Source: Desulfobacterales bacterium
Lineage (GTDB): Bacteria > Desulfobacterota > Desulfobacteria > Desulfobacterales > G020353555
Direction of reading: 5' to 3'
Assembly (NCBI GenBank): GCA_020353555.1
Contig: CP070697.1
Location: forward strand, 6,724,371 to 6,788,370
DNA length: 64,000 bases
Positions 1,429 to 41,456 of this stretch are shown piece after piece. Under the pieces are notes generated by a model. The model was given only the letters and a program-made list of their open reading frames with translations, ran no database searches and was not told where the DNA came from. The position numbers and the translations under genes were made by a program. Positions within the stretch are counted from its first letter, which is position 1. Every line of letters begins with the position of its first letter.

Positions 1429-2613
1429 ATGAAACGAAAGAAATCTTTTTGGGGATGCCTGGCCATTGTTGGTGTTGGGGCGGTGATTGCATTTTCGGGC
1501 GCAGCCATCGCGGCCGGGTTCGATGAACTACCGCAAGATATCCGCGAGCAGAATTATCCAGAGGATATGATGGATCCGATGCAGCCCTTGGGGCCAAGCG
1601 TGTACCGTGATTGGAAGGCCCCGAAGAAGCCGCCATGGACGATCGGCTATGCCAGTTCATATGCGGGCAACACTTGGCGCGCCGGGGTTATGGATCGTCT
1701 GCAAAACACTATCATCCCCAAGTGGAAGAAGCTTGGGCTGCTCAAAGAAGTGATCATCACGCAATCGAACTTGAAGGATTCCGTTCAGATCCAGCAGATG
1801 AGGCAACTCGTCGACCGGGGGGTGGACGCGCTATTGGTGTGTTGCGGAAATCCGACGGCACTGAACCAGACGATAAAATATGCCTATGATCGGGGGGTGC
1901 CGACTTTCTCATTCGTGGGCTACGTCACGTCACCCTACGCAATAAGCTCGTCGGCGAACTTCGTGGTCGGCGGCTATAAACTCGGTATTTGGATGGCCGA
2001 AGAGCTCAAGGGGAAGGGCAATGTGCTCGTCGTTGAAGGCATTCCAGGCACGTCGGCGTCGGACTCCCAGGATCGCGGTATCAAGCTCGCCCTGGAAAAA
2101 TATCCCGACATTAAAATCGTCGGTGAGGTTGCGGGCATGTGGACCGACCAAGTCGCCCAGGCGGAAATCCAGAAATGGCTCGCAACACATCCGGGGAAAT
2201 TGGACGGCATCATCATACAATCAGCCTCCGAGCTAGGCGCAATTCGAGCCCTGAAACAATCCGGCCGACCGAGGGTTCCGATTACCATTGGTGGAGAGTT
2301 GGGCGCACTGTGCTACTGGCGCAAGAACCCTGATTATGTCAGCGGTGCCTACCATGCGTGGCCCCCCGGTGACGGTTTTGAGCTGGGCTGGAACATCATG
2401 ATGCGGACCTTGCAGGGGCAGGGACCCAAAATTCAGTCGATCTTGGCATCATCCGTCTATTTTGACTTCAACGATCTGAAAGAAAGCGTGGGAGAGGATT
2501 GCAGCGAAGACTCGGATCAATGGCTGAACGTCGGGATAGATCGGTGGGCGCCTAAGGAATTTCTCGATCACTTTTTCGTCCGGCCGGCTGACCCCGAACA
2601 ATATAAACCCTAA
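1429..2613 (+). CDS. ABC transporter periplasmic sugar-binding protein (type I PBP, RbsB-like)
   Basis: 394-aa ORF with AAGGAGG 7 nt upstream and an N-terminal signal/TM segment. The body (WTIGYASSYAGNTWR..VDALLVCCGNPTAL..) is typical of CUT2 sugar-binding proteins. Confidence 0.85.
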   Translation: MKRKKSFWGCLAIVGVGAVIAFSGAAIAAGFDELPQDIREQNYPEDMMDPMQPLGPSVYRDWKAPKKPPWTIGYASSYAGNTWRAGVMDRLQNTIIPKWKKLGLLKEVIITQSNLKDSVQIQQMRQLVDRGVDALLVCCGNPTALNQTIKYAYDRGVPTFSFVGYVTSPYAISSSANFVVGGYKLGIWMAEELKGKGNVLVVEGIPGTSASDSQDRGIKLALEKYPDIKIVGEVAGMWTDQVAQAEIQKWLATHPGKLDGIIIQSASELGAIRALKQSGRPRVPITIGGELGALCYWRKNPDYVSGAYHAWPPGDGFELGWNIMMRTLQGQGPKIQSILASSVYFDFNDLKESVGEDCSEDSDQWLNVGIDRWAPKEFLDHFFVRPADPEQYKP

Positions 2614-2730
2614 TCCGCGGTTACTGTTTAATTCAAATCGTTGCCGACTCAACGAACTGTGTCTTGCGCTAGGCTTGGGAGAGTGGCGCTCGCAACCTGG
2701 CCTACCGAGTCCAGGGGACAGTTGGTAAAC

Positions 2731-4902
2731 ATGCTTTCTGGCGAATCCACATATTCTGAGACCGCAGCGGTAACGCCCCCTACGGTGATGGGTGGTATTT
2801 CAATCGTCGGCGTGCGTAAGGCCTTCGGAGTCACCAAGGCCTTGGACGGGGTTAATTTTCACGCTTCGGTCGGCGAGATCCATGCGGTCGTTGGCGGTAA
2901 CGGGTCCGGGAAAAGCACCTTAGCGAAGGTGATGTCGGGGGTTCTGCCGCCGGATGCCGGTCAGGTATCGGTCCTCGGGCACTCGCCGTCTTCACCCCAA
3001 GAGGCGCGCGCGATCGGTATCGGCACGGTATTTCAGGAAGTGTTGGTCGCAGAGGAATGTTCGGTCGTCGACAATCTCTTTCTCGGTTCGGACCGTCTGT
3101 TCGCCAAATCAATGCCGTTCAAAAACAAGGTAGCGGCGGCAGAGGCGTTGATGTTGGATTTGACCGGTCACGAAGTTGATGCAGGAACATTGGTTGGGAG
3201 TCTGCCCCTGGGCATCAAGCAGTGGATCACCATCGGCCGCGCATTGTTGTGGCAGCCTAAAGTTCTCATTCTGGATGAATCGTCGGCCGCTCTTGATCTG
3301 GATTCCACCGAAAGGCTTTTTGCCAAGATCCGCCAGTTACGGGATCAGGGGGTTATCATCATTATCATCACCCACCGCATCGCCGAACTCATGCTTGTCT
3401 CCGATAAGGCGACGGTACTCCGCGACGGCCGCGATGTAGGTGTGCTGGAAAAGAAGGACATCACAGAGAAAAATCTGCTCCGACTGATGACGGGTAAGAC
3501 CCCGTCGTCCGCGCTATCTCGATCTTCAACCCCGGAAGATCGTACGGGCGAAGTTTTGCTGAGGACCGACCGGTTGAGAATCTGGCCCCGAAGCCCAGAA
3601 ATAACTTTTGGCCTTCATCGGGGAGAGATTGTCGGAGTTGCCGGACTCGATGGGCAAGGCCAGAGTGACTTCGTTCGCATCCTGGCTGGCGTCCAAAAAG
3701 CGGATCAATCGCATCCGACGGTTGCAAATCCTGCCGGCGGCTATGCTGAAATCAGGGGCTTGGCCGACGCGGCCACCTGCGGCGTGTCCTGTGTTTCAGG
3801 TGACCGAGCCCGCGAAGGTATTTTCGCCAATCTCAGTATCTACGAAAACCTTTTGTTGCCGATGTACCGGCGCAGGTCAAAAGCGGGAAAACTCAAGCTT
3901 ATCCACTGGGGAGAGTTAACAGGCGCATTCGATTGGGAGGTGGAGCGGCTTTCCATAAAAATGGGCGAACGTACGGACAGGATTACCTCGCTTTCCGGGG
4001 GCAATCAGCAGAAAGTCATGGTGGGTCGAGCGTTCGCTGTGAATCCAAACATCCTGATTCTCAACGATCCCGCGCGCGGGATCGATATTACCGCCAAGAG
4101 CGATCTCTACGGACACCTCGTGAACTTCGCGGCGTTAGGCAAGTCGGTCGTTTACATGTCGAGCGAAATCGAGGAATTGATCGGCCTTTGCTCACGGGTT
4201 ATCGTATTTCGAAACGGCGGCATCTTTGACGAGTTCACCGGCAATTCGATCAATCCTGCCAACATTCTGCATGCCATGTTCGGTCAGGCCAGAGGCACCT
4301 ATCAGGATGAACCCGCCGAGATAGCGCACGAAGTCGATGTTGCGGATAACGTGGCGCGCGGGGAACGCGATAGGGAAATCGAGGGCAATTTCACGTTGAA
4401 ATCCGCGGCCTTTGCCGATGGTGCCAGAATTCCGGATAGGTATGCAGAAAATAACAAAGTCTCGCCACCGCTGGAATGGGAAAATCCGCCCAAGGGAACC
4501 AAGAGCTTTGCCCTGTCCGTGACGGATCCTGATTTACCGGCCGAGTTCAATTTTCCAAGAGCTTTTGCGCATTGGTTGCTCTTTGACATACCGGGCTCCG
4601 CCCGCCGTCTTCCCGAAGGTGCCAGCCCTGGGGGAGAGCTCCCGCGCGGGGCCAAGGAGCTAAATAGTGACTTTGTCACGTTTCAGATACCGGGATTTGG
4701 TAAAGGCTATGGCGGGCCGTGGCCTCCGGATGCCGCCCATCGATATGTCTTCACGCTCTATGCCCTCAAGGCGGAAAGTTTGGATATTGCCGAAACGGCA
4801 GACTACGCTAAGTTCGTGAGTGCCGTGCTGCCGGTCACCATCACGACGGCAACCCTGATAGGCACCTACGGGCCTGCGCGCCGTCCACTGCCCGGGCAAT
4901 GA
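2731..4902 (+). CDS. CUT2-type tandem ABC ATPase (RbsA-like) fused to a C-terminal PEBP/YbhB-YbcL (Raf-kinase-inhibitor-like) domain
   Basis: Walker A GGNGSGKST, a second-half signature LSGGNQQK and two NBD halves are present. The C-terminal ~170 aa (FTLKSAAFADGARIPDRY..PPLEW..HWLLFDIP..GYGGPWPPD..HRYVFTLYAL) match the bacterial PEBP family. I prefer the ATG at 2731 to the ORF-track TTG at 2641. Confidence 0.8.
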   Translation: MLSGESTYSETAAVTPPTVMGGISIVGVRKAFGVTKALDGVNFHASVGEIHAVVGGNGSGKSTLAKVMSGVLPPDAGQVSVLGHSPSSPQEARAIGIGTVFQEVLVAEECSVVDNLFLGSDRLFAKSMPFKNKVAAAEALMLDLTGHEVDAGTLVGSLPLGIKQWITIGRALLWQPKVLILDESSAALDLDSTERLFAKIRQLRDQGVIIIIITHRIAELMLVSDKATVLRDGRDVGVLEKKDITEKNLLRLMTGKTPSSALSRSSTPEDRTGEVLLRTDRLRIWPRSPEITFGLHRGEIVGVAGLDGQGQSDFVRILAGVQKADQSHPTVANPAGGYAEIRGLADAATCGVSCVSGDRAREGIFANLSIYENLLLPMYRRRSKAGKLKLIHWGELTGAFDWEVERLSIKMGERTDRITSLSGGNQQKVMVGRAFAVNPNILILNDPARGIDITAKSDLYGHLVNFAALGKSVVYMSSEIEELIGLCSRVIVFRNGGIFDEFTGNSINPANILHAMFGQARGTYQDEPAEIAHEVDVADNVARGERDREIEGNFTLKSAAFADGARIPDRYAENNKVSPPLEWENPPKGTKSFALSVTDPDLPAEFNFPRAFAHWLLFDIPGSARRLPEGASPGGELPRGAKELNSDFVTFQIPGFGKGYGGPWPPDAAHRYVFTLYALKAESLDIAETADYAKFVSAVLPVTITTATLIGTYGPARRPLPGQ

Positions 4903-4963: not shown

Positions 4964-5368
4964 ATGGCTCGGTACAGTTCAGCGGCTCAACTCGACATGG
5001 AATGGGTTGAAGATTGGGCCAGGAGAGTAAATGAAGATAGAGTTCTGCGCGTGATCGGTCGGTTTTTTACGGCGAATTTTGTTATCGGAATTGATAACAG
5101 GGACTACCTGATCGTCGTGCGAGAGGGCAAAATTCAAAAGATAACAGATGGCTTGACTCCCAGCATGATGGGATGGCAGTTCGCCCTGAGAGCGCCGAGT
5201 ACGAGTTGGAGTAAATTCGCTCAACCGATCCCGCCGCCCATGTTCAACGACATCTGGGCAATGGCGCACCCGCTTCATGGCAAGTTGAAGATCGAAGGCG
5301 ATACAAAACCTTTCTGGCAAAACTTGCGTGCATTAAGTTGGATGCTCGCGCTCATGCGCGAAGTTTAG
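4964..5368 (+). CDS. SCP2 sterol-carrier-like domain protein
   Basis: 134 aa; the C-terminal GKLKIEGDTKPFWQNL pattern and overall layout resemble SCP2 lipid-binding domains. Confidence 0.6.
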   Translation: MARYSSAAQLDMEWVEDWARRVNEDRVLRVIGRFFTANFVIGIDNRDYLIVVREGKIQKITDGLTPSMMGWQFALRAPSTSWSKFAQPIPPPMFNDIWAMAHPLHGKLKIEGDTKPFWQNLRALSWMLALMREV

Positions 5369-5408: not shown

Positions 5409-6419
5409 ATGGCTAAATTCGATCCAATAGAGGGACGTTACGTCTATGTCGATTGTGAGGGTAAAACCTACCGCACCTATTTCGAAGAAAACGGGGAGGG
5501 CATCCCTCTTGTCTGTTTGCATACGGCCGGCACGGACGGGCGCGAGTGGCGGCATCAACTCTGCGACCGCGACATCACGAATAATTTCCGCGTCATCGCT
5601 TTCGATCTGCCGCGACACGGCAAGTCAATACCACCAGGGGATTTTTACAGGGCAGAAGACGAATACAAGCTGACATCGAAGTTTTATTCCGAGTTCACCA
5701 TGGCGTTCTGTCATGCCTTAGAGTTGGATAAGCCGGTCATCATGGGCTCTTCGATGGGCGGCAATATTTGCCTACCTCTGGCGCTGCGTTATGACAATGA
5801 ATTGAGCGCTCTTATCGCCATTGAGGCGTGCGACTACTCGCCCGGTTGGTGGCTCGACCCGCTGGCGCATCCCCACATTCACGGCGGTGAGGCCTGCGCG
5901 ACGTCGGTGTTTGGCTTGATGGCGCCCCAGAGTCCGGAGGAGTACCGCTGGGAGACCTGGTGGTACTATGCGCGAGGCGGTCCGGGCATTTTCAAGGGGG
6001 ACTTGTATTTCTACAGCGTGGACCACGATTTCCGGGATTTGTGTCACAAAATATCCGGGCGGGTACCGATTTATCTGATGACAGGTGTTTATGACTTCGC
6101 CTGTAGGCCCGAAATGACCCAAGAGACGGCCGACAAGATAAAGAATGCGGAATGCATAATTATGGAAGGCATTGGCCATTTCCCCATGTCCGAAAACCCG
6201 GAAGTGTTCAAAGAATACCTGATGCCGGTTCTGAAGAAAATCATCCAATCCGATCGAGGCGAACGCGAATTCAGCCGGTCTTCACATGGGGCGAGGTCCC
6301 GCCGCACAGATTCCTACGCCGGCCAAAGCAGGGTCATCGATTTTGACAATCGAAGCTCTCAACAGCGATACGGGAAGTCGGAAAAAGATAGCGGTTCCGT
6401 GCGGATCGTAGAGTTTTAA
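5409..6419 (+). CDS. Alpha/beta-fold hydrolase with a ~60-aa low-complexity C-terminal tail
   Basis: HTAG oxyanion region, the nucleophile elbow GSSMGG and a C-terminal GHFP histidine motif are present. The tail is Ser/Arg-rich. Confidence 0.8.
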   Translation: MAKFDPIEGRYVYVDCEGKTYRTYFEENGEGIPLVCLHTAGTDGREWRHQLCDRDITNNFRVIAFDLPRHGKSIPPGDFYRAEDEYKLTSKFYSEFTMAFCHALELDKPVIMGSSMGGNICLPLALRYDNELSALIAIEACDYSPGWWLDPLAHPHIHGGEACATSVFGLMAPQSPEEYRWETWWYYARGGPGIFKGDLYFYSVDHDFRDLCHKISGRVPIYLMTGVYDFACRPEMTQETADKIKNAECIIMEGIGHFPMSENPEVFKEYLMPVLKKIIQSDRGEREFSRSSHGARSRRTDSYAGQSRVIDFDNRSSQQRYGKSEKDSGSVRIVEF

Positions 6420-6442: not shown

Positions 6443-7831
6443 ATGAAATTAAACGCCTCATCCCCGTCGGGCAGCACCTATCTGTTGGTCCCTATTCTGT
6501 TGCTGTTCGCGCTACTGATCGTAGCCGTGATCAGGAGCCCGAGCCTTATCTCGGGCACAGGGATCGGCAGTGCGCTGATCGTTGCGGCTCCTCTGGTATT
6601 GGCCACCTACGCCCTGATGGTCGTTGCGATTGCCGGCCGCGGGACGGTCGATCTGTCCGTGGGGCCTTTGCTGGGTTTTATCAACGTCACGCTGGTGCAA
6701 TTGCATGGCGCAGATTTGGTGTCGTCGCCGCTGGCGGTGTTCGCGTATGTGATCGCCGCCGGTGTTGCCTACCAATTGGTCATGGGACTCATCATCATCT
6801 ATGTGCGCGTCCAGCCCATCATTGTCGCTCTCAGCGGGTATTTGGCGTTGTCGGGCATCAACCTGGTTATCATGCCCCGGCCAAGCGGAACCGCGCCCGA
6901 TTGGATGATGTCGTGGGGAGCGGGCACCTCGATTTTCTCGCCGGTGCTCGTCATTGTGGTGCTGAGCACGGCGGCTTGGCTTGTATTTGCGCGAAGCGCC
7001 TTCTGCGGGCACCTGCGGATGATGGGATTTGATGAGCGGGCGGCCTACACAAGCGGCGTCCGCATCAATGCGGTTCGTCTGGGAGCACATTGCATCGCGG
7101 GGGTTTTCTCCGGGCTGGCGGCCTTGACCGTGACTTCTCTGATCGGTTCAGGCGATCCGACCCAGGGCACCACCTACACGCTGATCGCCGTCACGGCCCT
7201 GGTCCTGGGTGGAACGAGTTTGGCGGGCGGGCGCGGGGGCGCGATTGGCTCGCTGATCGGTGCACTGAATCTTTTTCTGATTGGATATGTGCTCGCGACC
7301 TTTAATTTTGGCGGGATCCAAGGGTTCGTCACCGAAATGGCCTATGGCCTCATCCTGGTGCTGTCTTTCTTGTTGAGCGTGGCGCTGCCTTATCTTCAAA
7401 GACACATCCGCCACGTGTCGCCTTTTTTAGTGTTTGTCGCGCTGTCCATGCTCTTCACCGCGGTGATGCTTCACGCCAAGTACGACTACGGTCAGCCGGC
7501 GAACGTGCAGGAATCAACCGCTTCATTTCCTGCGGATGAACGCGCTTCGAGCGCTTTCTTCTTCGAGCTGGGGGAATCCGCTTCGGACTTCGCCATGTCC
7601 GCTAACCAAAAATCCATGGCCCTGGCAGCCTTGCTGCTGGTTTCGGTGGTCTTTATCCTGCGCGTGTCGGTCGCCGAAGCCAAAACCCGGTTGATGACAC
7701 CATTTATGTATGTAAGCCTGCTAATCATCATTCTGGTCGTGATATGGCTGTTGGCGACCTCGAACGGCCATGCCGCCCAATCCTTCGCGAGCGCTAAGAA
7801 GCAGGCCTGGATGATCGCAGTGGGAGCCTGA
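6443..7831 (+). CDS. ABC sugar permease (RbsC/BPD_transp_2 family) with ~130-aa extra C-terminal membrane extension
   Basis: Multi-TM protein with TVDLSVGPLLG, the IDLSVG motif of CUT2 permeases. Additional TM segments follow residue ~330. Confidence 0.8.
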   Translation: MKLNASSPSGSTYLLVPILLLFALLIVAVIRSPSLISGTGIGSALIVAAPLVLATYALMVVAIAGRGTVDLSVGPLLGFINVTLVQLHGADLVSSPLAVFAYVIAAGVAYQLVMGLIIIYVRVQPIIVALSGYLALSGINLVIMPRPSGTAPDWMMSWGAGTSIFSPVLVIVVLSTAAWLVFARSAFCGHLRMMGFDERAAYTSGVRINAVRLGAHCIAGVFSGLAALTVTSLIGSGDPTQGTTYTLIAVTALVLGGTSLAGGRGGAIGSLIGALNLFLIGYVLATFNFGGIQGFVTEMAYGLILVLSFLLSVALPYLQRHIRHVSPFLVFVALSMLFTAVMLHAKYDYGQPANVQESTASFPADERASSAFFFELGESASDFAMSANQKSMALAALLLVSVVFILRVSVAEAKTRLMTPFMYVSLLIIILVVIWLLATSNGHAAQSFASAKKQAWMIAVGA

Positions 7832-7833
7832 GC

Positions 7834-9219
7834 GTGCAAAGGACATTGTCGCCATTTCCCATGTGGGTAGGTCTGGTGATCGCGGCGCTGATTGCCGGTC
7901 TGGGCACAGGTCTGGGGTTCTGGCAGGGTCTACCCGCCCAAAATGTGATCTTGTACACGGCGGCCACGTTTGCGCTGGTGCTGTGGCTCTGGCAACACGT
8001 TGTCGCTGTGGGCTCGTCTGGCACTGCCGCGGATTCCGCGTCGACCGCCCCGGGTGAAGCGCACCCGAGCGCGCGGGCCGCATTCAGGAAATTCTTGACC
8101 GGCAATAGAGGGCTGCTGCTGGCTTTGCTGCTGTTGCTCGGGGCGTTTTTGATCGCATCCGTGACGGTCAGCGGGTTCTTCACAGGTTTGAATGTAATTG
8201 CCTTGCTGATCTTGATTGTACTGCTCGTCTTTGCCGTACGGGTGAGCAAATTCTTCATCAACAATCGCAGCGCATTCATCGGGTTGACGGTCCTCGCCGG
8301 GTTGTTTGCCATCAGCTCCTTCACCATCGAAGGATTCGCATCGGCTGCCAACATCAAGAGCATGCTGGTTTTTGCGTCCTTCTTGGGGCTCGCCTGTGTG
8401 GGTCAGACTTTCGTGGCGTTACTCGGAGGTTTGGATTTGTCGATTCCGTTCGTGATCGGATCGTCGAACGTGGGCCTCCTCTACCTGATAAAATTAGGCG
8501 TACCATCGTGGATTGCGGTGATCGTGGTATTGCTTCTCGGAACCTTCATCGGATTTATTAATGGCATCCTCAGTCTGCGTGTGCAAGGCCAGGCGCTCAT
8601 CTTGACGCTGGGCGTTGGCTTTGCCGTCTCGGGTCTGACCCAAATAATGACTAGCATCGGCTCCGCCCAGATGGGCAACGTCTACGGCAAAGTGCCGGAT
8701 TGGCTCAGAAATCTTGCGGCGATGAATGGCAAGACGTTTGGGCTCAGCGTGCCTCCGATCATCTTGATCTGGGCCGGCATGGCGGTGCTTCTGATCTATG
8801 GCCTCAAAAATACCGTTTACGGGCGTTATCTTTACGCGCTGGGGGGCAACCGTATTTGCGCGGGACAACTGATGTTTTCCGAGGGCCGCTACTGGGTCGG
8901 CACTTTCATGGTAAGCGGCATTTTTTCGGCGATCACCGGTTCGTTGCTGTTGGGCTGGAGTGGCGGGGGGTTCATCGGCGTCGGGCAGCCTTATTTGTTC
9001 ATGACCTTGGCGGCGGTGGTGATCGGCGGCACCTCGTTGCTCGGAGGCTATGGTGGCTATGGATTTACGGTGATTGGTGTTCTCGTCCTGCAGGTGCTTA
9101 CATCGTTCCTCGTTGGCATCGGTCTGACGTTTGAGTGGCAGCAGTTTATTTTTGGTCTTTTGATATTACCAATGGTGGCCCTGTACGCTCGATCAGCCCA
9201 CATTCGTACTCAGGTCTAA
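7834..9219 (+). CDS. ABC sugar permease (RbsC family) with ~125-aa extra N-terminal membrane extension
   Basis: Carries the GGLDLSIPFVIGSS motif and about 10 TM segments. It starts 2 nt after the stop codon of the previous permease gene (GTG start, or ATG at 7861). Confidence 0.8.
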   Translation: MQRTLSPFPMWVGLVIAALIAGLGTGLGFWQGLPAQNVILYTAATFALVLWLWQHVVAVGSSGTAADSASTAPGEAHPSARAAFRKFLTGNRGLLLALLLLLGAFLIASVTVSGFFTGLNVIALLILIVLLVFAVRVSKFFINNRSAFIGLTVLAGLFAISSFTIEGFASAANIKSMLVFASFLGLACVGQTFVALLGGLDLSIPFVIGSSNVGLLYLIKLGVPSWIAVIVVLLLGTFIGFINGILSLRVQGQALILTLGVGFAVSGLTQIMTSIGSAQMGNVYGKVPDWLRNLAAMNGKTFGLSVPPIILIWAGMAVLLIYGLKNTVYGRYLYALGGNRICAGQLMFSEGRYWVGTFMVSGIFSAITGSLLLGWSGGGFIGVGQPYLFMTLAAVVIGGTSLLGGYGGYGFTVIGVLVLQVLTSFLVGIGLTFEWQQFIFGLLILPMVALYARSAHIRTQV

Positions 9220-9236: not shown

Positions 9237-9935
9237 ATGGTGAACAAATTAATTGGGGTGCAAGACATCGCCAGCGGGACATTCGCACTGATTATGGTCG
9301 CTACCCTCGCAACGACCGTGTTGTTGCTTGCAGGTACCGCATGGGTGCCGCGGAGATGGAAGCTACCCCTCGCGCTATCGGGTATTGTGACGCTGGCTTC
9401 AGCGGCCCACTATCTGATTGCCACCAACGTGTGGCTTGCCACTGCTCAGATGACGATGATCTACCGCTATATCGGATGGTTCCTAACCGTTCCCCTGCAA
9501 GTGGTGACACTGTATTTCTTCGTTGGAGCGGTCGGCCCGGTGCCCGTCGGCGTATTTTGGCGTCTCCTGGTGGCCGCGGTGTTGATGGTGCTCTCCCGCT
9601 TCATGGGCGAGGCCGATCTAATGCATTCAGCGCTTGGCTTCTTAATCGGTCTTGTGACTTGGCTCTACATTCTCGGTGAGGCTTTCTTTGGTTGGATGAG
9701 CAAAAGAGTATTGCAGGCTGGCAGCGATCCTGTGCGCAAGGGGTTTTTCTGGTTGCGTCTGATAATAACGATAGGCTCGGGGATCTATCCCCTTTGCTAC
9801 TTCATTGCGAGTTTTACCGGCGACGTGGAAATCAGATATCTGATGGTTACTTACAACCTAGCCGATTTTGTTAACCAAATCGCTTTTGGGTTGATTATTT
9901 TGGCGGTAGGGATGAAGGAGAGCGTTTCCTTATGA
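9237..9935 (+). CDS. Type-1 (proteorhodopsin/xanthorhodopsin-clade) rhodopsin homologue lacking the retinal-binding lysine
   Basis: 7TM protein. Helix C is YRYIGWFLTVPLQ, helix D MVLSRFMGE, helix F GSGIYPLCY and helix G YNLADFVNQIAFGLII. Gln replaces the Schiff-base Lys (CAA 9876-9878) and Gly replaces the counterion Asp (GGA 9474-9476). Confidence 0.75.
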   Translation: MVNKLIGVQDIASGTFALIMVATLATTVLLLAGTAWVPRRWKLPLALSGIVTLASAAHYLIATNVWLATAQMTMIYRYIGWFLTVPLQVVTLYFFVGAVGPVPVGVFWRLLVAAVLMVLSRFMGEADLMHSALGFLIGLVTWLYILGEAFFGWMSKRVLQAGSDPVRKGFFWLRLIITIGSGIYPLCYFIASFTGDVEIRYLMVTYNLADFVNQIAFGLIILAVGMKESVSL

Positions 9936-10056: not shown

Positions 10057-11712
10057 ATGATTGGCGCAGACATCATTTCAATTATTATCTTGGTGGCGAT
10101 CATTATCGCAATCGTCGTTTACCTTTTGCACTGGTTGTATCGCCATTCGTCAAAGGATCTTTCATTCGTCCGCACCGGCTTGGGTGGAGAGAAGGTTGTC
10201 ATGGGCGGAGGAGCATTGGTGTTGCCCATCGTCCATGAGATTACCGAAGTCAGCATGAAGACCCTGCGCATCGAAATTCGGCGGGCAATGGAGAAATCGC
10301 TCATCACCAAAAATCGTATGCGCATCGAGGTGATTGTGGAGTTCTTCGTCCGCGTTATGCCAACGGCGGAAGCCGTTTCAGCCGCGGCGCGAACTGTGGG
10401 CAACCGCACGCTGGATCCCGAGGGGCTGAAGGAATTGGTTGAAGGCCGGTTTGTCGATGCCATGGGCGCGGTCGCGGCACGCATGACGATGGAGGAAATC
10501 CATGAAAACCGCAGCGAATACGTCACGGGCGTGAAGGATCTGGTTGCCGACACGCTTACTGCAAACGGTCTTGAACTCGAGGCGGTTTCACTGACCCGGC
10601 TCGACCAGGCGGATATCAAGCTGTTTAATCCGTCCAACGCCTTCGATGCCGAAGGTCTGACTCGGCTGACAGAGGAAATCCAAAGCCGCAAGAAAAAGCG
10701 CAATGCCATCGAGCAAGATACCGACATCGCGATCCGATCAAAGAATCTGGATTCGGAGAAGCTGGCGCTAAAGATCGGCCAGGACAGCGAATACGCCCGT
10801 TTGGACCAAGAGCGCGAAATTGCCATGCGCCGCGCACAACAACGGGCGGAAATCGAGCGGGAAAAGACTGATCGCGAGCGGGAAATCCAGGAGGCCCAGA
10901 TAACGTCCCAAGAGCAGATCGAAAAGGCGCGCTTCCAGCTCGAGCGTCTGGTCGACGCCGAACGCATCCGGCGACAGCAGGAATCCGAAAGTCTTGAAAT
11001 CAGGCGGCGCGAAAGACTGGAGTTAGAGGAACAAGAACGCGCCATCGCCGTCGCGCTCAAGTCAAAGGAAAAGTCGGAGGCACAAACGGCGGCCGAAGAA
11101 GCGCGCAGCGCGACCGTTAAAGCTCAGGAAAAGGTAATTACTTTGCGCGAAACGGAAATTGCCGAACGTCGAAAGCATATCGAACTGGTAGAAGCTTCAC
11201 AGCAGGCGGAACGCGAAGCCATCAAGATCAAAACGAGGGCGGCGGCGGAGTTGGTCGCTGCCGGCGATCGGGCCCAAGCCGAAATTACGGCCGCCAATGC
11301 TTCTCAGCATCGCTATGCAATCGACGCTGAAGGCAGACGCAAGCTGAACGATGCGGAGAATATGCGTTCCGATGCCAGTCGACGCAGCGCTTTGCAGGAG
11401 GAGCTCCTTAACCGCATACCGTCAATCGTTCGTGAGAGTGTGAAACCGATGGAAAATATTGAGTCCATCAAGATCCTTCAGGTCGATGGCTTGCCGGGGT
11501 TAAGCGGCATGTCCACCGGCGGTAACGGCAACGAAAACAATGGCAAGTCCGAGGGTGGCGGCCCGCGCTCCGGCAGCTTGGCAGACAACGTGGTGAACTC
11601 AGCACTTCGCTATCGCACCCAGATCCCCTTCGTCGAAGGACTCCTGCGCGAGATCGGCATGCCCATTAGTCCCTCGAGTGGCGGGGGGGCTAACGATCTT
11701 TCCCGTCGGTGA
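10057..11712 (+). CDS. Flotillin-like SPFH/band-7 protein (YqiK family)
   Basis: N-terminal TM segment, an SPFH core (FVRTGLGGEKVV..LRIEI..RIEVIVEFFVRV) and a long Glu/Arg/Ala-rich coiled coil. Confidence 0.85.
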   Translation: MIGADIISIIILVAIIIAIVVYLLHWLYRHSSKDLSFVRTGLGGEKVVMGGGALVLPIVHEITEVSMKTLRIEIRRAMEKSLITKNRMRIEVIVEFFVRVMPTAEAVSAAARTVGNRTLDPEGLKELVEGRFVDAMGAVAARMTMEEIHENRSEYVTGVKDLVADTLTANGLELEAVSLTRLDQADIKLFNPSNAFDAEGLTRLTEEIQSRKKKRNAIEQDTDIAIRSKNLDSEKLALKIGQDSEYARLDQEREIAMRRAQQRAEIEREKTDREREIQEAQITSQEQIEKARFQLERLVDAERIRRQQESESLEIRRRERLELEEQERAIAVALKSKEKSEAQTAAEEARSATVKAQEKVITLRETEIAERRKHIELVEASQQAEREAIKIKTRAAAELVAAGDRAQAEITAANASQHRYAIDAEGRRKLNDAENMRSDASRRSALQEELLNRIPSIVRESVKPMENIESIKILQVDGLPGLSGMSTGGNGNENNGKSEGGGPRSGSLADNVVNSALRYRTQIPFVEGLLREIGMPISPSSGGGANDLSRR

Positions 11713-12247: not shown

Positions 12248-14224
12248 TTGCCTGATCGCATGACGTGGTTGTATGCCTTTCTCGCCTTCTATGCCGTCTA
12301 TTGCCTTTATTGGGGTGTTACGAGTAGCCGTGGATCGAAGACGGCCGACGACTTTTTCCTCGCTAACCGACAGATCCCCGCGTGGGTCTTCGTATTGACG
12401 GGCACCGCCCTCTCTTTGAGCGGGTGGATTTTCATGGGCCACCCGTCGATGGTATTTCTGGATGGATTTCAATACGCTCAATGTGCCTTAGGTGCCGTGG
12501 TCATCCCTCTGGGGGGGATTCTGTTTCTGAAGCGGCAGTGGCTGCTGGGAAAACGTTTTGGTTATGTGACGCCCGGCCAGATGCTTGCCGCCTATTTTTC
12601 CGGCGAGTCAATTCGCATTGTGGTGGTGTTGATCGCCTTGATGTTCGCAATTCCTTTTGTTGGAATACAGCTTGCGGCTTCCGGCCAACTCATCGCCAGC
12701 TTGACCGACGGCAGGGTCGATCGTCACGCCGCGATGTGGATTCTGAGCTTCAGCGTATTTCTTTATGCCTGCATTGGTGGCATGCGTGCGGTGACCAGTG
12801 TCGGCGCGCTCCAGTCCATGCTGATGGTCGGGGGCATGGTTGCCGTCAGTTGCGTCGCCTACATCGAGCTGGGTGGTTTCGGCGCTCTCAACGAGGCGCT
12901 AGCTAACCTTGGCACGTCACTGAACGTCTCTGCAACGAATTTCTTCGTTATTCCTGGGGTGATTCAATTTACGGAAGGTCTCGGCAAAGAGATGCCCGTC
13001 GGCGGCATCTGGACGGCTTCGATGATTCTCACCTATGGTTTCGCCCTGATGGGGATGCAAACGTCACCTGCATTTAGTATGCTGGGGTTCGGCTGCCGTG
13101 ACCCCAAAGGCTTTGCCGCGCAACAAGTCTGGGTCTTAGGGGGCGTGATCGGCATGGTTCTGCTTTTTTTCGCGGCGATCCAGGGCATAGGGGCGCACTT
13201 CTTGGGCGCCTCTAAGGAAATCACCGAGGCTGGACTGGCGCTGTCCGCTGTGTTGCCTGAGCAGGAGGCTGGAAAATACACGAATCTGACGGTGAGCTAC
13301 ATCAAGTTAGTCGCTGCGGAAAACCCTTGGTTCATGGCGCTGTTCGCAATATGCGCGCTATCGGCAATCCAGGTCGCCGCCGCCGCCTTTGCATCGACAA
13401 CCGCAACCATCTTTTCCGTAGATATCTACAAGCGCTTCATGCACCCAACGGCCGATGATCGGATGCTGAAGCTTTGCGCAAGGATCACGCTGATGTTGAT
13501 CTTCTTGATTGCGCTGCTTTTGGCCACCTTCACCCCCGTGGCCCAGGCCCATCTCGGTATGCTCGCTCCCGCCTTCGCCGTGCAGTTATGGCCCTCCCTT
13601 GCAGGGGTTTGCTGGTTTCCTTGGATTACTCGGCAGGGGGCCACGCTGGGTTTGATCGCGGGTTTGGTGGCAGTCATGCTCGTGGATCCCGTCGGCGGCT
13701 CAATCACCCGATTCCTTGGTTTGGATCTGCCTTGGGGGTACTGGCCCTGGACGATCTACTCCGCGGGGTGGGGCATCTTGTGCAACGTTCTGGTCTGCGC
13801 AGTGGTTTCTTTGGCCACCCGCGGCGGAGAGGATCGTCAGCACCGCGCGAACTATCACCGGTTCCTCCAAGAACACGCCGGGCTCACAGCGGAAAAGCAC
13901 ATCATGCGACCCGCTGTGTGGGCCTTGACCCTGGCATGGCTGTTTTTTGCAATTGGTCCGGGCGCAATTATTGGCAACGATTTTTTCGGTGCTCCGAATG
14001 GGGGCCTCTCGGCTTGGAAACTGGGAATGCCCTCGCTATGGGGATGGCAGATTATTTGGTGGGCCTTGGGTATTTTGGTGATCTGGTGGCTGGCCTACCG
14101 AATGGAGTTGTCCACGCTGCCTCGGACGCAGGTTGCGGAAGGAGGCCCAGCGTTAAGCACTGGGCGCAGGGTGGGGAGAAAAACGCCGCTTTGGATCAAG
14201 AATTTTTTGAGACGTGTCTCTTGA
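12248..14224 (+). CDS. Sodium:solute symporter (SSS) family transporter
   Basis: 658 aa with about 13-14 TM segments. The N-terminal pattern YWGV..ADDFFLANRQIPAWV is typical of SSS. The TTG start lies 7 nt after GGAGA; an alternative ATG is at 12260. Confidence 0.85.
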   Translation: MPDRMTWLYAFLAFYAVYCLYWGVTSSRGSKTADDFFLANRQIPAWVFVLTGTALSLSGWIFMGHPSMVFLDGFQYAQCALGAVVIPLGGILFLKRQWLLGKRFGYVTPGQMLAAYFSGESIRIVVVLIALMFAIPFVGIQLAASGQLIASLTDGRVDRHAAMWILSFSVFLYACIGGMRAVTSVGALQSMLMVGGMVAVSCVAYIELGGFGALNEALANLGTSLNVSATNFFVIPGVIQFTEGLGKEMPVGGIWTASMILTYGFALMGMQTSPAFSMLGFGCRDPKGFAAQQVWVLGGVIGMVLLFFAAIQGIGAHFLGASKEITEAGLALSAVLPEQEAGKYTNLTVSYIKLVAAENPWFMALFAICALSAIQVAAAAFASTTATIFSVDIYKRFMHPTADDRMLKLCARITLMLIFLIALLLATFTPVAQAHLGMLAPAFAVQLWPSLAGVCWFPWITRQGATLGLIAGLVAVMLVDPVGGSITRFLGLDLPWGYWPWTIYSAGWGILCNVLVCAVVSLATRGGEDRQHRANYHRFLQEHAGLTAEKHIMRPAVWALTLAWLFFAIGPGAIIGNDFFGAPNGGLSAWKLGMPSLWGWQIIWWALGILVIWWLAYRMELSTLPRTQVAEGGPALSTGRRVGRKTPLWIKNFLRRVS

Positions 14225-14324
14225 TGTCACCCCTCTTTCGCGCTCAGCCTCGCGGCCAATGGGCTCCGTTTTTCTTGGGGCGAAACGGTTGACTGCCTGG
14301 CCGGGCCGGCGGCGTAGAGGCCCT

Positions 14325-16139
14325 ATGACCGTGATCCCCCTCATGGCGGTTTTGGCCTTCATGCAAAGAAGAGGCTTCATCAGGATCAGACAGGAAGTGC
14401 TGGCGGCGCTTTTTTTCTGGGCGCTGGTCTCCGATGCGACCTCTCAGCCACCGCAGAAACAGGTGGACGAATACAACGCCCAAACCCCCAAGACGGTCAT
14501 CGAACTACAGCAGTTTCGGAAAACCTCCTCTATAGCCATCCGCAAAAGCACAGGCCCGGAGGGTACGGGCACCCTCATAAACCTGAACCCGAGGATAAAT
14601 ACCTGGTATCTCCTCCTCCTCCAGTGGCGAGAAAGCGATGGAGTGGAGGCCTACCATCTGGAAAATCCGGCGCCCGCAACTCAAACGCTCCTCCTCGACC
14701 CCGACTATCCCGCGGGGATCGTGATTCATTCCCCCAAAGAGACCCACCGCTGTGACCTGTGGTCTGTCTCCTCCGGGTCCGACCTGGCCGGGGCCGCCGA
14801 CTCGGGTCGGACCTATGCCCCCCTTTGCGGGGAAAGGCTGTTGCTCCGCAACAAGACCGAGGGGCACAAGACGACACTGGAGAAGGTGACCGATCTGCTC
14901 CGGAACCATGTTTGGCAAGGGGAGAAAATCACGACCTTCGTGAGGGAAAAATTCTACCAGGACGCTTTTCTCAATACCTCTGAGAATATCGAGGCCCCCA
15001 AACCTTCGACCGGGGCGCGGCCGTGCCCCCCCGGTGCCCCTGCGCGCCCGCTGACCGGCGCACGCTATGCCTATCACTTCCTGCTCGCCCAGGAATTGGG
15101 CATCGATCTTGAATCGGATACGGGGGAAAAGGTTCTGGTCGGCCGCTGGTATAGCGCCAGAGGGCTCCCCGGTGTCTTCGTGAGCGTGATCAAACCCAGC
15201 CTCGTGGCTGAGGAGATTGTCGAGCGCCAGAAAAAGCAGGTCAACCCCCTCGATGAGGTTGAATCCAATGCCCTGGTATACATGGTCGCCTTCGACCTTG
15301 ACATGGTGGATCTGGGGTTCGAGATGGGCACGGAGCATCCCCGGGTGGATTGGTCGGCTCGGGTTCTGGATCAGACGCGTGACAAGACCCTCCCCGGACC
15401 GGACGGGATCGGGACCCTGGAGCCCCTCGTCATGACCGGGCTGCTGAGTCCCGCCCGCCGGGAGCGGATCGCCGCGACCTTTGTAGGAGGATTCAAGCGT
15501 TATCCCGGGGCCTTTCGGTGGTCTGGTCTGGCCCTCAAGAACCATGGAAGCCATTACGGGTTCATCGAGCACGGGACGGTTCTCAGCAAGCTTCAACCGG
15601 GGCTGGCCACCGTTGCAGTTTTTGAGGACGGGACCATCGATCTCAAAACGTGGACCGAAAGGGACAATGCCGACCTCGCAAAGATTCGCCATGCCCGCCA
15701 GAATGGGGTCCCCATTATTGAATACGATCCAGGGAGCGAAAATTCCAGGGTGGGGGTCATGGTGCCCCGCTGGGGTCAGGGGAACTGGTCGGGTTCCGCA
15801 GACAAGCGGTTTCGCACCTTAAGAGCCGGCCTGGGCCTGCAGACGTACGAGGACCGCCGGTTTTTGATCTACGGCTATTTCTCCGCCGCCACGCCCTCGG
15901 CCATGGCCCGGGTCTTCCAGGCCTACCAATGCCGGTATGCCCTGCTCCTGGATATCAATGCCCTGGAACACACCTACCTGGCGGTTTACAGGCACCAGGA
16001 TTCGGAATTGTCCACCCGACACCTGATCAAGGGGATGAGCGTGCTGGACAAGACCAAAGGGGGCCAGGTGATCCCGCGTTTCGTCGGTTACCCGGACAAC
16101 CGCGATTTCTTCTACCTTGTGAGAAAGGCTAATCCATGA
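14325..16139 (+). CDS. Secreted/membrane-anchored hypothetical protein (~604 aa)
   Basis: Long ORF with coding-like composition and a hydrophobic N-terminus after the ATG at 14325. It is translationally coupled (ATGA overlap) to the next gene. The C-terminal region faintly resembles phosphodiester-glycosidase-like domains, but this is not secure. Confidence 0.5.
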   Translation: MTVIPLMAVLAFMQRRGFIRIRQEVLAALFFWALVSDATSQPPQKQVDEYNAQTPKTVIELQQFRKTSSIAIRKSTGPEGTGTLINLNPRINTWYLLLLQWRESDGVEAYHLENPAPATQTLLLDPDYPAGIVIHSPKETHRCDLWSVSSGSDLAGAADSGRTYAPLCGERLLLRNKTEGHKTTLEKVTDLLRNHVWQGEKITTFVREKFYQDAFLNTSENIEAPKPSTGARPCPPGAPARPLTGARYAYHFLLAQELGIDLESDTGEKVLVGRWYSARGLPGVFVSVIKPSLVAEEIVERQKKQVNPLDEVESNALVYMVAFDLDMVDLGFEMGTEHPRVDWSARVLDQTRDKTLPGPDGIGTLEPLVMTGLLSPARRERIAATFVGGFKRYPGAFRWSGLALKNHGSHYGFIEHGTVLSKLQPGLATVAVFEDGTIDLKTWTERDNADLAKIRHARQNGVPIIEYDPGSENSRVGVMVPRWGQGNWSGSADKRFRTLRAGLGLQTYEDRRFLIYGYFSAATPSAMARVFQAYQCRYALLLDINALEHTYLAVYRHQDSELSTRHLIKGMSVLDKTKGGQVIPRFVGYPDNRDFFYLVRKANP

Positions 16140-17170
16140 AGCCCTGTTTTGTCGCACTTCAACTCATTATCCTCCTGGCTATCTTGGCCGGGCAGGCCTC
16201 CTCCCAGGATCTCAACGCCCTGGCCCGGCAAAACGAGGTCCTTTTTCGTCAACTCCAGGCCGCTCGCAATTTGACGGAAGCACAGATGATTAGGGTCCGC
16301 GCCATCTTCGCCGGATCGGGCTATATGGGTCAGGGGAATCCTGCCATCACCAAACATCCCGTCACGGCGGCGCAGTGTGAAGAAAAAATTGCAGGAGAAA
16401 GCCTCCACGATGGAAACCCCTTCTTCGAAAGCATATGCGGGGCCAAATACATGGCGCCCCTCTACAATCCTGCGGCGGAAAAGCCGGACGAGGCCGGCGC
16501 CTGTATCGATCAGTTCGAGTTCCCCGACATCCCCTGCGCCTATCCGGTCGTCTGGGTGCGGGCCCGGGAAGCGGCGGAGCTCTGTGAAGCGGTAGGCAAG
16601 CGCCTATGCGATGCCCATGAATGGGAGGGGGCCTGCGCCGGCGTCCTCGAGGAACCGGACTACCGGTTTGACCTGGCGGTAGGGAGAAGCCCCGCGGCGG
16701 CGATCCGCCTCATGCAGCAGGCACACAATCAAAATTACCGCGCGAGCAAGTCCTGGAGCTACGGCGACGCTTACCGCGAGGGCATTTGCGCCGGTGCCAG
16801 TTCCAAGACCTCCGGATGCACCGGAGGCAGCTGGTCGGGTTGCGGATCCAACACCTTACCGGCGGGCTTCTTTCCCCAGTGCCGCAGTCCGCTGATGGTC
16901 TACGACCTCCATGGCAATGCCGCCGAGCACATGAACCTGCCCCTCAATGAAAACCAAATGGCCAGCCGGGGCCACCGGGAGTACGGGTATACCGAGATGA
17001 AGGGCAGCTGGTTTATCTTCGATAGTTACAGGGCGCATGAAGATTGGTGCCGGTGGCGCGCGCCCTTCTGGCACGGAAGCCGGGTGATGGACAAAAAGAG
17101 TCACCACAACTACCATCTCGGCTTTCGTTGTTGCAAGAGCCTAGCGCGGGGGAACCCCCAATCGCGGTAA
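16136..17170 (+). CDS. FGE-sulfatase (SUMF1/formylglycine-generating-enzyme-like) domain protein, secreted
   Basis: Signal peptide present. It carries YDLHGNAAEH (cf. the D-x-HGN-x-EW motif) and the terminal HLGFRCC, which is typical of the FGE-sulfatase fold. Confidence 0.75.
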   Translation: MKPCFVALQLIILLAILAGQASSQDLNALARQNEVLFRQLQAARNLTEAQMIRVRAIFAGSGYMGQGNPAITKHPVTAAQCEEKIAGESLHDGNPFFESICGAKYMAPLYNPAAEKPDEAGACIDQFEFPDIPCAYPVVWVRAREAAELCEAVGKRLCDAHEWEGACAGVLEEPDYRFDLAVGRSPAAAIRLMQQAHNQNYRASKSWSYGDAYREGICAGASSKTSGCTGGSWSGCGSNTLPAGFFPQCRSPLMVYDLHGNAAEHMNLPLNENQMASRGHREYGYTEMKGSWFIFDSYRAHEDWCRWRAPFWHGSRVMDKKSHHNYHLGFRCCKSLARGNPQSR

Positions 17171-24130: not shown

Positions 24131-25390
24131 TCATCCCGCCGCGAATCGCGGCGGGCTGGTAATCGTCCCCCGAATGGCGGAAGCCGCTGCGGTTGCCGGG
24201 CTGGCAAGATACACCCGCGAATCCGGGTTTCCCATACGCCCTTTGAAATTGCGGTTGCTCGTGGACAGACAGACCTCATCTTCCGCCAGCACGCCCTGGT
24301 GAACCCCGGCGCAAACCGCACAGCCGGGATTCACGATCGCGGCGCCGGCATTCATAAAGGTCTTGAGATACCCTTGGGCCATGGCTTCCAGGTAGACGCT
24401 GCGCGAGGCCGGGGCCACAATCAGCCGCGTCCGAGGGTTTATGCTTTTCCCCGCCAGGATCCCGGCGGCTTCGGCCAGATCTTCAAGACGCCCATTGGTG
24501 CATGAGCCAATAAAAACCTGGTCGATGCGGGTTCCCTCAACTTCGCTCACCGGCACCACCTGATCGACGGCGTGGGGTCGGGCAACCACCGGCACCAGCT
24601 TTTCCGCGTCGATTTCGACAACCCGCTCATACACCGCATCCGGATCAGGGCCAAGCGGCTGAAAACACTTTCCTCTTCCAAGGCGCTCGAGGTAGCTGCG
24701 GGTGACCTCATCGGAGGGGAAAAGACCCGTTTTGGCGCCGGCCTCTACCGCCATATTGGCAACCGTCAGACGCTGGGACATCGTCATGGTCTTGAGGCTT
24801 TCGCCGCCGAATTCCAGCGCCTTATAGGTGGCACCCTCAGCCGTCAGCAGCCCAATCACGTGCAGGATCAAATCTTTAGCGCCCACCCCGGCCGGGAATC
24901 GGCCGGAAATTCTAATCAAAAAGCTTTCCGGTACCCTCAGCCAGTTTTTGCCCAACCCCATGGCAATGGCGATATCGGTCGACCCCATGCCGGTCGCAAA
25001 CGCCCCCAGTCCGCCCATGGTACAGGTGTGGGAGTCACCCCCCACGATTACGTCTCCGGGCTTGGCCCATTGCTCGACCACGAGCTGATGGCAAATTCCG
25101 TCTCCGACCTGGTAAAGGGGACAGCCGTTCTCGGAGGCAAAGGCTCTGACGAGCTTCTGGTCGTTTGCCAGCTCCCGGCGCGGGGCAGGTACACAGTGAT
25201 CGAGAAAGAACGGGGTCGACTCGGGGTGGGCCAGTCGATCCAGGCCGCTTTGGCGGAACTGCTGAATGGTGAGGGGACCGCCGACATCGTGCGCAAATAC
25301 CAGGTCCATCGGAGCGATGACCACATCACCGGCCTGGGCATCGACTCCCGATTTGGCGCTCAGAATCTTTTCTGCCAGTGTTTTGCCCAT
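24131..25390 (-). CDS. Aconitase-superfamily dehydratase large subunit (LeuC/homoaconitase/maleate-hydratase type)
   Basis: 419 aa with GGDSHT, GSCTNGR and Fe-S cluster Cys contexts. Confidence 0.85.
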   Translation of the reverse strand: MGKTLAEKILSAKSGVDAQAGDVVIAPMDLVFAHDVGGPLTIQQFRQSGLDRLAHPESTPFFLDHCVPAPRRELANDQKLVRAFASENGCPLYQVGDGICHQLVVEQWAKPGDVIVGGDSHTCTMGGLGAFATGMGSTDIAIAMGLGKNWLRVPESFLIRISGRFPAGVGAKDLILHVIGLLTAEGATYKALEFGGESLKTMTMSQRLTVANMAVEAGAKTGLFPSDEVTRSYLERLGRGKCFQPLGPDPDAVYERVVEIDAEKLVPVVARPHAVDQVVPVSEVEGTRIDQVFIGSCTNGRLEDLAEAAGILAGKSINPRTRLIVAPASRSVYLEAMAQGYLKTFMNAGAAIVNPGCAVCAGVHQGVLAEDEVCLSTSNRNFKGRMGNPDSRVYLASPATAAASAIRGTITSPPRFAAG

Positions 25391-27150: not shown

Positions 27151-27177
27151 TGCGTGTAACCGCCTTCGGTCTATTTT

Positions 27178-28548: not shown

Positions 28549-28673
28549 CGCCGCGTGCCGCCGATCGGTCCCTTGTCCCGAGGGCCGTTATGGTTTCAGC
28601 GCCGGCGTTTGGGCCGGGCCGGCCGGCAGAGAGTGCCGACGGTGGTCTAGAATTATGGCCGGATCAACCATTT

Positions 28674-30008: not shown

Positions 30009-30074
30009 ACCACCCACCCCGCTCAATGTTGGCCCTGCAGTTTGTTGGTTGCCGCTTCCGAACTTGGTTCTTTC

Positions 30075-40535: not shown

Positions 40536-40542
40536 AACCGTT

Positions 40543-41412: not shown

Positions 41413-41456
41413 GCGGAAGCCGGCGCCACAAGAACATTTGGCGGACCAATACGCCC

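Follow-up and report, generated by a model that had tools for sequence, protein, structure and literature searches.

A 64,000-nucleotide stretch of the Desulfobacterales contig CP070697.1 (positions 6,724,371 to 6,788,370 of the forward strand; hereafter the window) encodes a rhodopsin that lacks the Schiff-base lysine and is embedded between the genes of an ATP-binding cassette (ABC) importer and a flotillin gene. The protein, encoded by the open reading frame (ORF) 9237..9935, belongs beyond reasonable doubt to the proteorhodopsin family and, within it, to the FArhodopsins (flotillin-associated rhodopsins, FARs), a clade of proteorhodopsin paralogs that always adjoin a flotillin gene (Haro-Moreno et al., 2023, mSystems, PMC10308929). 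According to the same study, marine FArhodopsins retain the lysine, whereas in most freshwater members its place is taken by Gln, Thr, Leu or Arg. Because that study already described the clade, its flotillin neighbor, the cluster genes and the lysine-less freshwater members, the window gene is a further example of a published branch and not new in kind; as a discovery in its own right, it is a rediscovery. Its remaining value lies in tractable hosts, in a strict coupling between the loss of the lysine and the presence of an arginine (Arg121), and in a fixed transporter-rhodopsin-flotillin module.

FArhodopsins are widespread and structurally solved, and they are still without a function. PsFAR, from a marine Pseudothioglobus, is a pentamer that binds no retinal; His84 and Glu120 fill its pocket, the latter in the space of the beta-ionone ring (Kovalev et al., 2025, bioRxiv 10.1101/2025.04.29.651185). 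The preprint describes all FAR producers as uncultivated aquatic microbes, and both published studies worked only with uncultured aquatic cells and heterologous expression. By contrast, the window and its relatives show that large genomes can carry the lysine-less branch with its complete gene cluster, among them the genomes of cultured, genetically tractable strains, so that knock-outs, localization studies and pull-downs become possible. In term searches of their main texts, neither FAR paper mentions tractable hosts, the invariant Arg at the PsFAR Glu120 position and its coupling with the loss of the lysine, or the complete and fixed ABC-importer module, and our literature search found no paper linking rhodopsin, flotillin and Rhizobium.

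Family membership and selective constraint

The protein encoded by 9237..9935 matches Pfam Bac_rhodopsin with E=9.8e-22 and 78 bits (cut-off 24.6), in line with the proteorhodopsin-family assignment of the first-pass annotation, which had been made from the DNA letters alone. The top sequence matches in the PDB (phmmer) are PsFAR entries, namely 9r23, a double mutant (E=1.9e-47), and 9r21 (E=3.8e-47), followed by PsPR and Med12 BPR. Together, the proteorhodopsin and FAR matches span 1e-35 to 1e-47, and xanthorhodopsin is matched weakly (E=2.9e-4). An AlphaFold model built on 67 homologs has seven helices (pLDDT 88.5, pTM 0.86), and its best fold match in Foldseek is again PsFAR, with a TM score of 0.92 and a root-mean-square deviation of 1.4 A. 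In RefSeq, the relatives from cultured strains go by the name 'bacteriorhodopsin'.

The gene is under purifying selection. Against three relatives that are 71-82% identical (loci L081, L001 and L003), the ratio of nonsynonymous to synonymous substitution rates (dN/dS) is 0.10-0.11, with dS at about 1.1 for the closest of them and near saturation for the others; more distant relatives give 0.16-0.21. Furthermore, 34 columns are invariant in an alignment of 67 sequences.

The pocket without the lysine

Residue equivalences were taken from a MAFFT alignment with green proteorhodopsin (GPR), PsFAR and PsPR, with which a separate alignment including bacteriorhodopsin agrees; the numbering of the GPR reference sequence was confirmed (D97, T101, E108, K231). 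Both the codons and the alignment bear out the first-pass claims that the Schiff-base lysine (GPR K231) is replaced by Gln214 (CAA, 9876-9878) and the counterion aspartate (GPR D97) by Gly80 (GGA, 9474-9476), and the alignment likewise places Thr91 at the proton-donor position (GPR E108). The equivalent of GPR T101 is T84, and the aspartate D227 is kept as D210. The resulting motif, G-T-T with Gln214, is that expected for the freshwater branch and not the marine DTT, DTL or DNI with a helix-G lysine.

Residue counts, given here for the best 120 of 1412 homologs, extend these observations to the clade. No lysine is found in the K231 column, which holds Q (91), V (14), L (11), E (2) and R (2). 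Therefore, a sequencing error at the lysine codon can be rejected, as the earlier note had argued for the substitutions as a group. The D97 column is more mixed (G 61, D 29, A 24, E 4), and the L105 column is Q in 119 sequences. The helix-F tryptophan (GPR W197) is a different case: it is present in 119/120 homologs and in 33/33 related loci, and serine occurs in the window protein only. The reported change to Ser181 (TCG, 9777-9779) is thus correctly read, but as a singleton that is one base from TGG it could be either strain-specific or a base error.

No other lysine takes the place of the missing one. The window protein has five (K4, K42, K156, K168 and K227), all in loops or at helix ends, and a substitute on helix G, for which the first-pass annotation had proposed a check, is not present: K227 lies at the membrane edge, 13 positions beyond Q214 towards the C-terminus, and proteorhodopsins have it as well. 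With Gln at position 214, no retinal Schiff base is possible, and on this basis the protein is very probably retinal-free. At the same time, the former pocket is largely kept (W81, M117, F135, W142, Y184, P185, Y206, D210 and N213).

The most constant change concerns Arg121 (CGC, 9597-9599), which corresponds to GPR G138 and PsFAR Glu120. This column is R in 120/120 homologs and in 34/34 loci, among them all 33 lysine-less loci from the GTDB sample described below. From the gap-free alignment and the PsFAR superposition, its side chain is expected to point into the pocket. In a 50%-identity representative library of rhodopsins, which we scanned for coupled positions, Arg121, the absence of the lysine and Gly147 co-occur in 6/6 representatives, and Glu121, Lys and Gly147 form the signature of the marine FARs; representatives with Gly121 carry Lys at 214, except for P0483 (Asp) and P0508 (Gly). 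As judged from these sequences, loss of the lysine in the clade is always accompanied by an arginine at the PsFAR Glu120 position.

Two further residues link the window protein to the marine FARs. Gly147 (codon at 9675-9677) is common to the lysine-less clade and the marine FARs; in its place, 11/11 proteorhodopsins compared carry Y, F or W. Likewise, Ser55 corresponds to PsFAR S54, where proteorhodopsins have Ala. A third feature is shared in part. The preprint states that an aromatic residue at the His84 position is 'found in all FARs' (Kovalev et al., 2025), but the window protein has Val85 there, as do retinal-binding proteorhodopsins, and the aromatic block is absent. Among 34 lysine-less sequences, the position is M (25), V (5), L (2) or A (2), and a histidine was found in some others, namely the Shinella locus L084 and representatives P0402 and P0534. 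By this alignment, the aromatic His84 block describes the marine branch and not the entire FAR clade.

A fixed module of transporters, rhodopsin and flotillin

The rhodopsin gene is part of a run of ten genes on the same strand, which look co-transcribed, as far as order and orientation can tell:

1429..2613 (+), periplasmic substrate-binding protein, Peripla_BP_4, sugar/CUT2 type (Pfam E=1.4e-37)
2641..4902 (+), ABC ATPase with two nucleotide-binding domains (two Pfam ABC_tran stretches) and a C-terminal phosphatidylethanolamine-binding protein (PEBP, PF01161) domain (PBP/PEBP E=7e-32)
4964..5368 (+), SCP2-like small soluble protein of 134 aa, no Pfam match (homolog of a SAR11 'SCP2 sterol-binding domain' protein, E=2.6e-19)
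5409..6419 (+), alpha/beta hydrolase (Pfam Abhydrolase_1; 49% identical to the SAR11 FAR-cluster hydrolase, E=1.7e-89)
6443..7831 (+), ABC permease 1 (Pfam BPD_transp_2), kept upstream of the rhodopsin in related loci
7834..9219 (+), ABC permease 2 (BPD_transp_2, Pfam E=1.7e-22) with an N-terminal extension
9237..9935 (+), lysine-less flotillin-associated rhodopsin, 232 aa, ATG start
10057..11712 (+), flotillin with SPFH/Band_7 and Flot domains (Pfam Flot E=1e-32, Band_7) and one N-terminal hydrophobic segment
11776..12186 (+), small hydrophobic protein of 136 aa with about 3-4 membrane segments (hydropathy scan), no Pfam or NCBIfam match
12248..14224 (+), sodium:solute symporter family (SSF) transporter (Pfam SSF E=5.7e-25)

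The rhodopsin ORF starts 17 nt past the stop of permease 2, and 121 nt separate its stop from the flotillin gene, which agrees with the context given in the first-pass annotation. The accompanying claim that no link to an ABC importer or to flotillin had been described does not hold: the flotillin link names the family, and ABC permeases appear in Table S2 of Haro-Moreno et al. (2023) as FAR-cluster genes, together with an SSF symporter, an SCP2-like protein and an alpha/beta hydrolase. We compared the FAR-cluster proteins of this table with the window by tblastn. Besides the SCP2-like protein and the hydrolase listed above, the flotillin is 56% identical to its SAR11 FAR-associated counterpart (E=3e-97), the SSF symporter 37% (E=1e-82), and the N-terminus of permease 2 matches a SAR11 FAR-cluster ABC permease (E=1.6e-5); the lactonase and iron alcohol dehydrogenase of the SAR11 cluster were not found in the window cluster. 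By these similarities, the window cluster is homologous to the published SAR11 FAR cluster.

To the conservation of this arrangement, two sets of loci speak. A scan of GTDB species representatives yielded 80 loci, 33 of them lysine-less and 47 with canonical proteorhodopsins of the D-T-E/K type, mostly from Pelagibacteraceae; with one metagenomic locus (L081) and three PLSDB replicons (L082-L084), the lysine-less loci number 37. Permease 2 directly precedes the rhodopsin in 33/33 lysine-less GTDB loci and in L081-L084, and wherever the contig of a lysine-less locus is long enough to show it, a flotillin gene follows the rhodopsin. The linkage among orthologs that the first-pass annotation had proposed to check is thus present in all 37 loci within the reach of their contigs. 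With the same proviso, the substrate-binding protein (58-74% identity, same relative position), the ATPase and permease 1 are encoded upstream, and the flotillin, the small hydrophobic protein (30-63% identity, kept between flotillin and symporter) and the SSF symporter downstream, every gene having the orientation of the rhodopsin gene. This succession of ABC importer, rhodopsin, flotillin, small membrane protein and SSF symporter is strictly conserved in the lysine-less loci, three PLSDB replicons included, and the genes for importer, flotillin, small membrane protein and SSF symporter are absent from 47/47 loci with lysine-bearing proteorhodopsins.

Around this core, the clusters vary. In the metagenomic relative L081 (82% identical), all ten genes recur without any change of order. 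Its ATPase also bears the PEBP fusion, a feature confined to a subclade comprising the window and L081, L001, L003, L012 and L013. The SCP2-like and hydrolase genes shift as a pair to different positions between lineages. Most alphaproteobacterial clusters (L014-L035) have an extra AttM-type N-acyl-homoserine lactonase and an iron alcohol dehydrogenase, which are 52-66% identical to SAR11 FAR-cluster genes and so far better conserved than the rhodopsin itself (about 40%). IclR regulators lie near both annotated plasmid clusters, L082 (Pararhizobium gei plasmid p2) and L083 (Hoeflea sp. IMCC20628 plasmid). We take this set of lactonase, iron alcohol dehydrogenase and IclR regulator to resemble the Agrobacterium blc/attKLM lactone-catabolism operon.

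Several searches for further clues to function and regulation returned nothing specific. NCBIfam gave only sugar-type matches for the ABC importer, all far below equivalog cut-offs, and a weak resemblance of the hydrolase to the enol-lactonase PcaD. Rfam found no credible riboswitch upstream of the ABC operon, and the 121-nt spacer between rhodopsin and flotillin showed no regulatory structure (fold z-score 0.0, poor conservation).

Some minor observations concern the cluster and its edges. The annotated TTG start of the ATPase at 2641 may be too far upstream, given a length of 753 aa in the window and of 724 aa in L081. Within the flotillin gene, a Ser/Arg-rich antisense ORF of 313 aa (10119-11060, minus strand) mirrors the Glu/Arg/Ala-rich coiled-coil region of flotillin and is almost certainly not a gene. 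The roughly 1.4 kb upstream of the substrate-binding-protein gene (1-1428) contain no ORF of at least 200 aa, the longest overlapping one having 105 aa. Rfam finds nothing in this stretch, and the miRNA matches of an AT-rich hairpin at 1232-1297 stay at chance level. On the other side, a 641-aa ORF without a Pfam match, overlapping a 344-aa FGE-sulfatase-like protein by 4 nt (14214-17170), directly follows the SSF symporter on the same strand, and this pair is kept in no other FAR locus.

Hosts

The window copy lies on a contig of 6.84 Mb (6,839,688 bp), and its genome is therefore not streamlined. The host is probably, if tentatively, an anaerobic, Desulfobacterales-like bacterium, a reading suggested by a tungsten-type aldehyde:ferredoxin oxidoreductase and a histidine kinase encoded among 45592-47448 and 57972-59453, of which the latter has its nearest named relatives in Desulfobacterales/Thermodesulfobacteriota (72-76% identity). 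The signal from a LeuC-like protein (24131-25390) conflicts with this reading, its nearest named relatives being in Chloroflexota (63-72% identity).

Relatives of the rhodopsin are found in metagenome-assembled genomes of Methylibium, Rhizobacter, Rhodoferax, Polaromonas and Novosphingobium. Cultured carriers, which represent both Alpha- and Betaproteobacteria, include Tistlia consotensis, Lichenifustis flavocetrariae, Rhizobium aquaticum, Rhizobium sp. LjRoot30, Pararhizobium antarcticum, Roseovarius litoreus, Pararhizobium gei (on a conjugative plasmid), Hoeflea sp. IMCC20628, Martelella spp. and Shinella sp. PSBB067. Root, soil and lichen isolates as well as plasmids are thus among the carriers.

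The Shinella locus L084 (NZ_CP069303.1) has a complete lysine-less FAR cluster, with Leu at the lysine position and His at the PsFAR His84 position. PLSDB lists this replicon as 'plasmid unnamed1' with two annotated features; at 4.6 Mb, it is chromosome-sized and probably mislabelled.

Relation to known rhodopsins

The closest published counterparts are the freshwater lysine-less FArhodopsins of Haro-Moreno et al. (2023), with which the window protein shares the sequence clade, the replacement of the lysine by Gln, Leu or Arg, the flotillin neighbor on the same strand and the FAR-cluster genes. One of our loci, L032, is the contig Tobar13m-C806 listed in Table S4 of that study, and N-termini of 'freshwater unknown taxon' sequences in the table match the window clade, the comparison being one of N-termini and contig names. 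These published sequences come from short lake-metagenome contigs of 'unknown taxon' only, whereas the window copy lies on a megabase-scale contig of a large, probably anaerobic genome and has cultured and plasmid-borne relatives.

PsFAR (PDB 9r21) is the best match in both sequence and fold, and shares Gly147, Ser55, Gln88, the flotillin neighbor and a bulky charged residue at position 120/121. It differs in keeping Lys213 and Asp79 and in having its pocket blocked by His84 and Glu120, where the window protein has Gln214, Gly80, Val85 and Arg121 and no long helix-G tail. Its host also differs, as the streamlined marine genome carries a proton-pumping proteorhodopsin as well.

The proton-pumping proteorhodopsins (GPR/BPR) have the same family and fold, 37% identity and the conserved residues R77, W81, T84, Y184, P185 and D210, and Gln88 of the window protein matches the blue-absorbing type. 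However, Asp97, Glu108 and Lys231 are all replaced, Gly138 has become Arg, and the genomic context is entirely different.

Two other groups of type-1 rhodopsins have lost the lysine. Rh-noK, reported from marine Betaproteobacteria, has the fold without the Schiff-base lysine and no known function, but it is related to xanthorhodopsin and encoded in tandem with a functional rhodopsin pump; the window protein is nearest to proteorhodopsins and FARs and has no second rhodopsin within 64 kb. Opsin-related proteins of haloarchaea and fungi (Becker et al., 2016, PMC4915679) replace the lysine with Arg or a hydrophobic residue, and a retinal-free sensory role has been proposed for them. They differ in belonging to a sensory-rhodopsin-related clade and in often adjoining HAMP/MCP transducers, and the paper mentions neither flotillin nor Proteobacteria.

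A proposed retinal-free partner of a flotillin scaffold

For the lysine-less FArhodopsin as a whole, we lean slightly towards a light-independent, retinal-free partner of a flotillin scaffold around transporters. The protein has kept its seven helices and most of the former pocket residues, with Gln214 barring the retinal Schiff base and the clade-invariant Arg121 placed where PsFAR Glu120 fills the beta-ionone space, and it would work without retinal and without light. Since PsFAR is a pentamer, the window protein is probably pentameric too. Its gene would be expressed together with those of the CUT2-type ABC importer, the flotillin, the small membrane protein and the SSF symporter, and the resulting oligomer might touch flotillin or the transporters directly. 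In this view, it would accompany the flotillin scaffold in the membrane and contribute to arranging the adjacent transporters within a microdomain. We propose this last part, the role as flotillin partner or organizer, tentatively, and it may well prove wrong. The first-pass annotation had likewise proposed a retinal-free rhodopsin fold in a light-independent role, as subunit, sensor or scaffold. The structural half of this proposal fits all our findings and the published lack of retinal in PsFAR; as a whole the proposal is partly supported, the role itself being hypothetical.

Several observations weigh against this picture. A neighbor-joining tree does not resolve the lysine-less clade as sister to the marine FARs (bootstrap 29%), although Gly147, Ser55 and the histidine at the His84 position in some lysine-less subclades support this kinship. 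The chief pocket-blocking residue of PsFAR, His84, corresponds to Val85 here, and Ser181 replaces a bulky Trp; as both leave room, the cavity may be partly open and not filled. Moreover, the window protein ends at residue 232, without the cytoplasmic helix-G extension that was proposed as the flotillin contact of PsFAR (Kovalev et al., 2025), and a promoter and terminator scan of the cluster stayed at background level.

The room in the pocket lends itself to another explanation, in which the protein is a ligand-binding regulatory subunit. The old pocket would bind a non-covalent amphiphile, for instance a fatty acid, an isoprenoid acid or a lactone-derived acid, and thereby tune or gate the ABC importer or the SSF symporter, much like a chemoreceptor. 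The invariance of Arg121 and the retention of the pocket aromatics under purifying selection would fit such a role, as would the space left by Val85 and Ser181. Decanoate is present in the structure of a proteoopsin without retinal (PDB 8cnk), many related clusters have the AttM-type lactonase, iron alcohol dehydrogenase and IclR regulator, and a GPCR-like (G protein-coupled receptor-like) role was raised by Haro-Moreno et al. (2023). Yet the cluster encodes no transducer or signaling domain, and the window's own cluster is devoid of the lactonase and dehydrogenase genes. We regard this explanation as unlikely. Its most specific form appears less likely still; here the pocket of the Arg121 branch would be a site for a non-retinal amphiphile, for example a carboxylate lipid or a lactone-derived acid, and the protein would serve the adjacent ABC importer and SSF symporter in a flotillin microdomain as a light-independent subunit for chemosensing or gating. 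If true, non-phototrophic bacteria, some of them plasmid-bearing and perhaps anaerobic, would be using a type-1 rhodopsin in the manner of a GPCR.

We attach a similarly low likelihood to the analogy with lipid scramblases, whereby the protein would act, independently of light, as a scramblase or lipid-handling protein in a flotillin microdomain, together with the SCP2-like and PEBP modules. A proteorhodopsin has phospholipid scramblase activity and a light-independent benefit in E. coli (PMC10730872), where scramblase activities of bacteriorhodopsin and bovine opsin are also cited, and in the window cluster an SCP2-like protein is encoded alongside an ABC ATPase with a fused PEBP domain. This explanation leaves unaccounted for the strict linkage to an importer that depends on a solute-binding protein, and the PEBP fusion is limited to one subclade.

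It is very improbable that the protein is an accessory subunit that hetero-oligomerizes with a true proton-pumping proteorhodopsin encoded elsewhere in the genome, as was hypothesized for marine FARs in 2023. That idea draws on marine single-cell genomes, in which a FAR is always accompanied by a bona fide proteorhodopsin; for freshwater FARs, coexistence with other rhodopsins could not be assessed (Haro-Moreno et al., 2023). In the 64-kb window, Pfam searches of all large ORFs and tblastn found no second rhodopsin, and the Pfam searches found no retinal or carotenoid genes. No second rhodopsin is present in any of the lysine-less loci of about 20 kb, and the 4.6-Mb Shinella sp. PSBB067 replicon yields a single rhodopsin match. 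The range of carriers, with root, soil and lichen isolates and plasmids, and the apparently anaerobic window host point the same way. These context data weaken the pump-helper idea for the lysine-less branch, and if the cultured hosts prove to be without a proton-pumping rhodopsin, it fails for this branch.

Finally, the joint loss of several catalytic positions and the one-base singleton Ser181 might suggest that a proteorhodopsin gene is decaying into a pseudogene, or that the lysine codon was misread in sequencing, but with an intact ORF, a clade-wide loss of the lysine (0/120 homologs), a dN/dS of about 0.1, 34 invariant columns in 67 sequences and a confident AlphaFold model, we reject both readings and give this explanation practically no chance.

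Other features of the window

Elsewhere, the window is unusually rich in paralogs of organic-acid catabolism. Four MmgE/PrpD paralogs, grouped with PrpF, lie in 25768-30026 (minus strand), 39378-42851 (plus strand) and 42966-44951 (minus strand). The same region encodes a PEP-mutase/isocitrate-lyase-like enzyme and a sigma-54 activator of the PrpR type, and it is flanked by two TRAP transporters and two SdhA-like flavoproteins.

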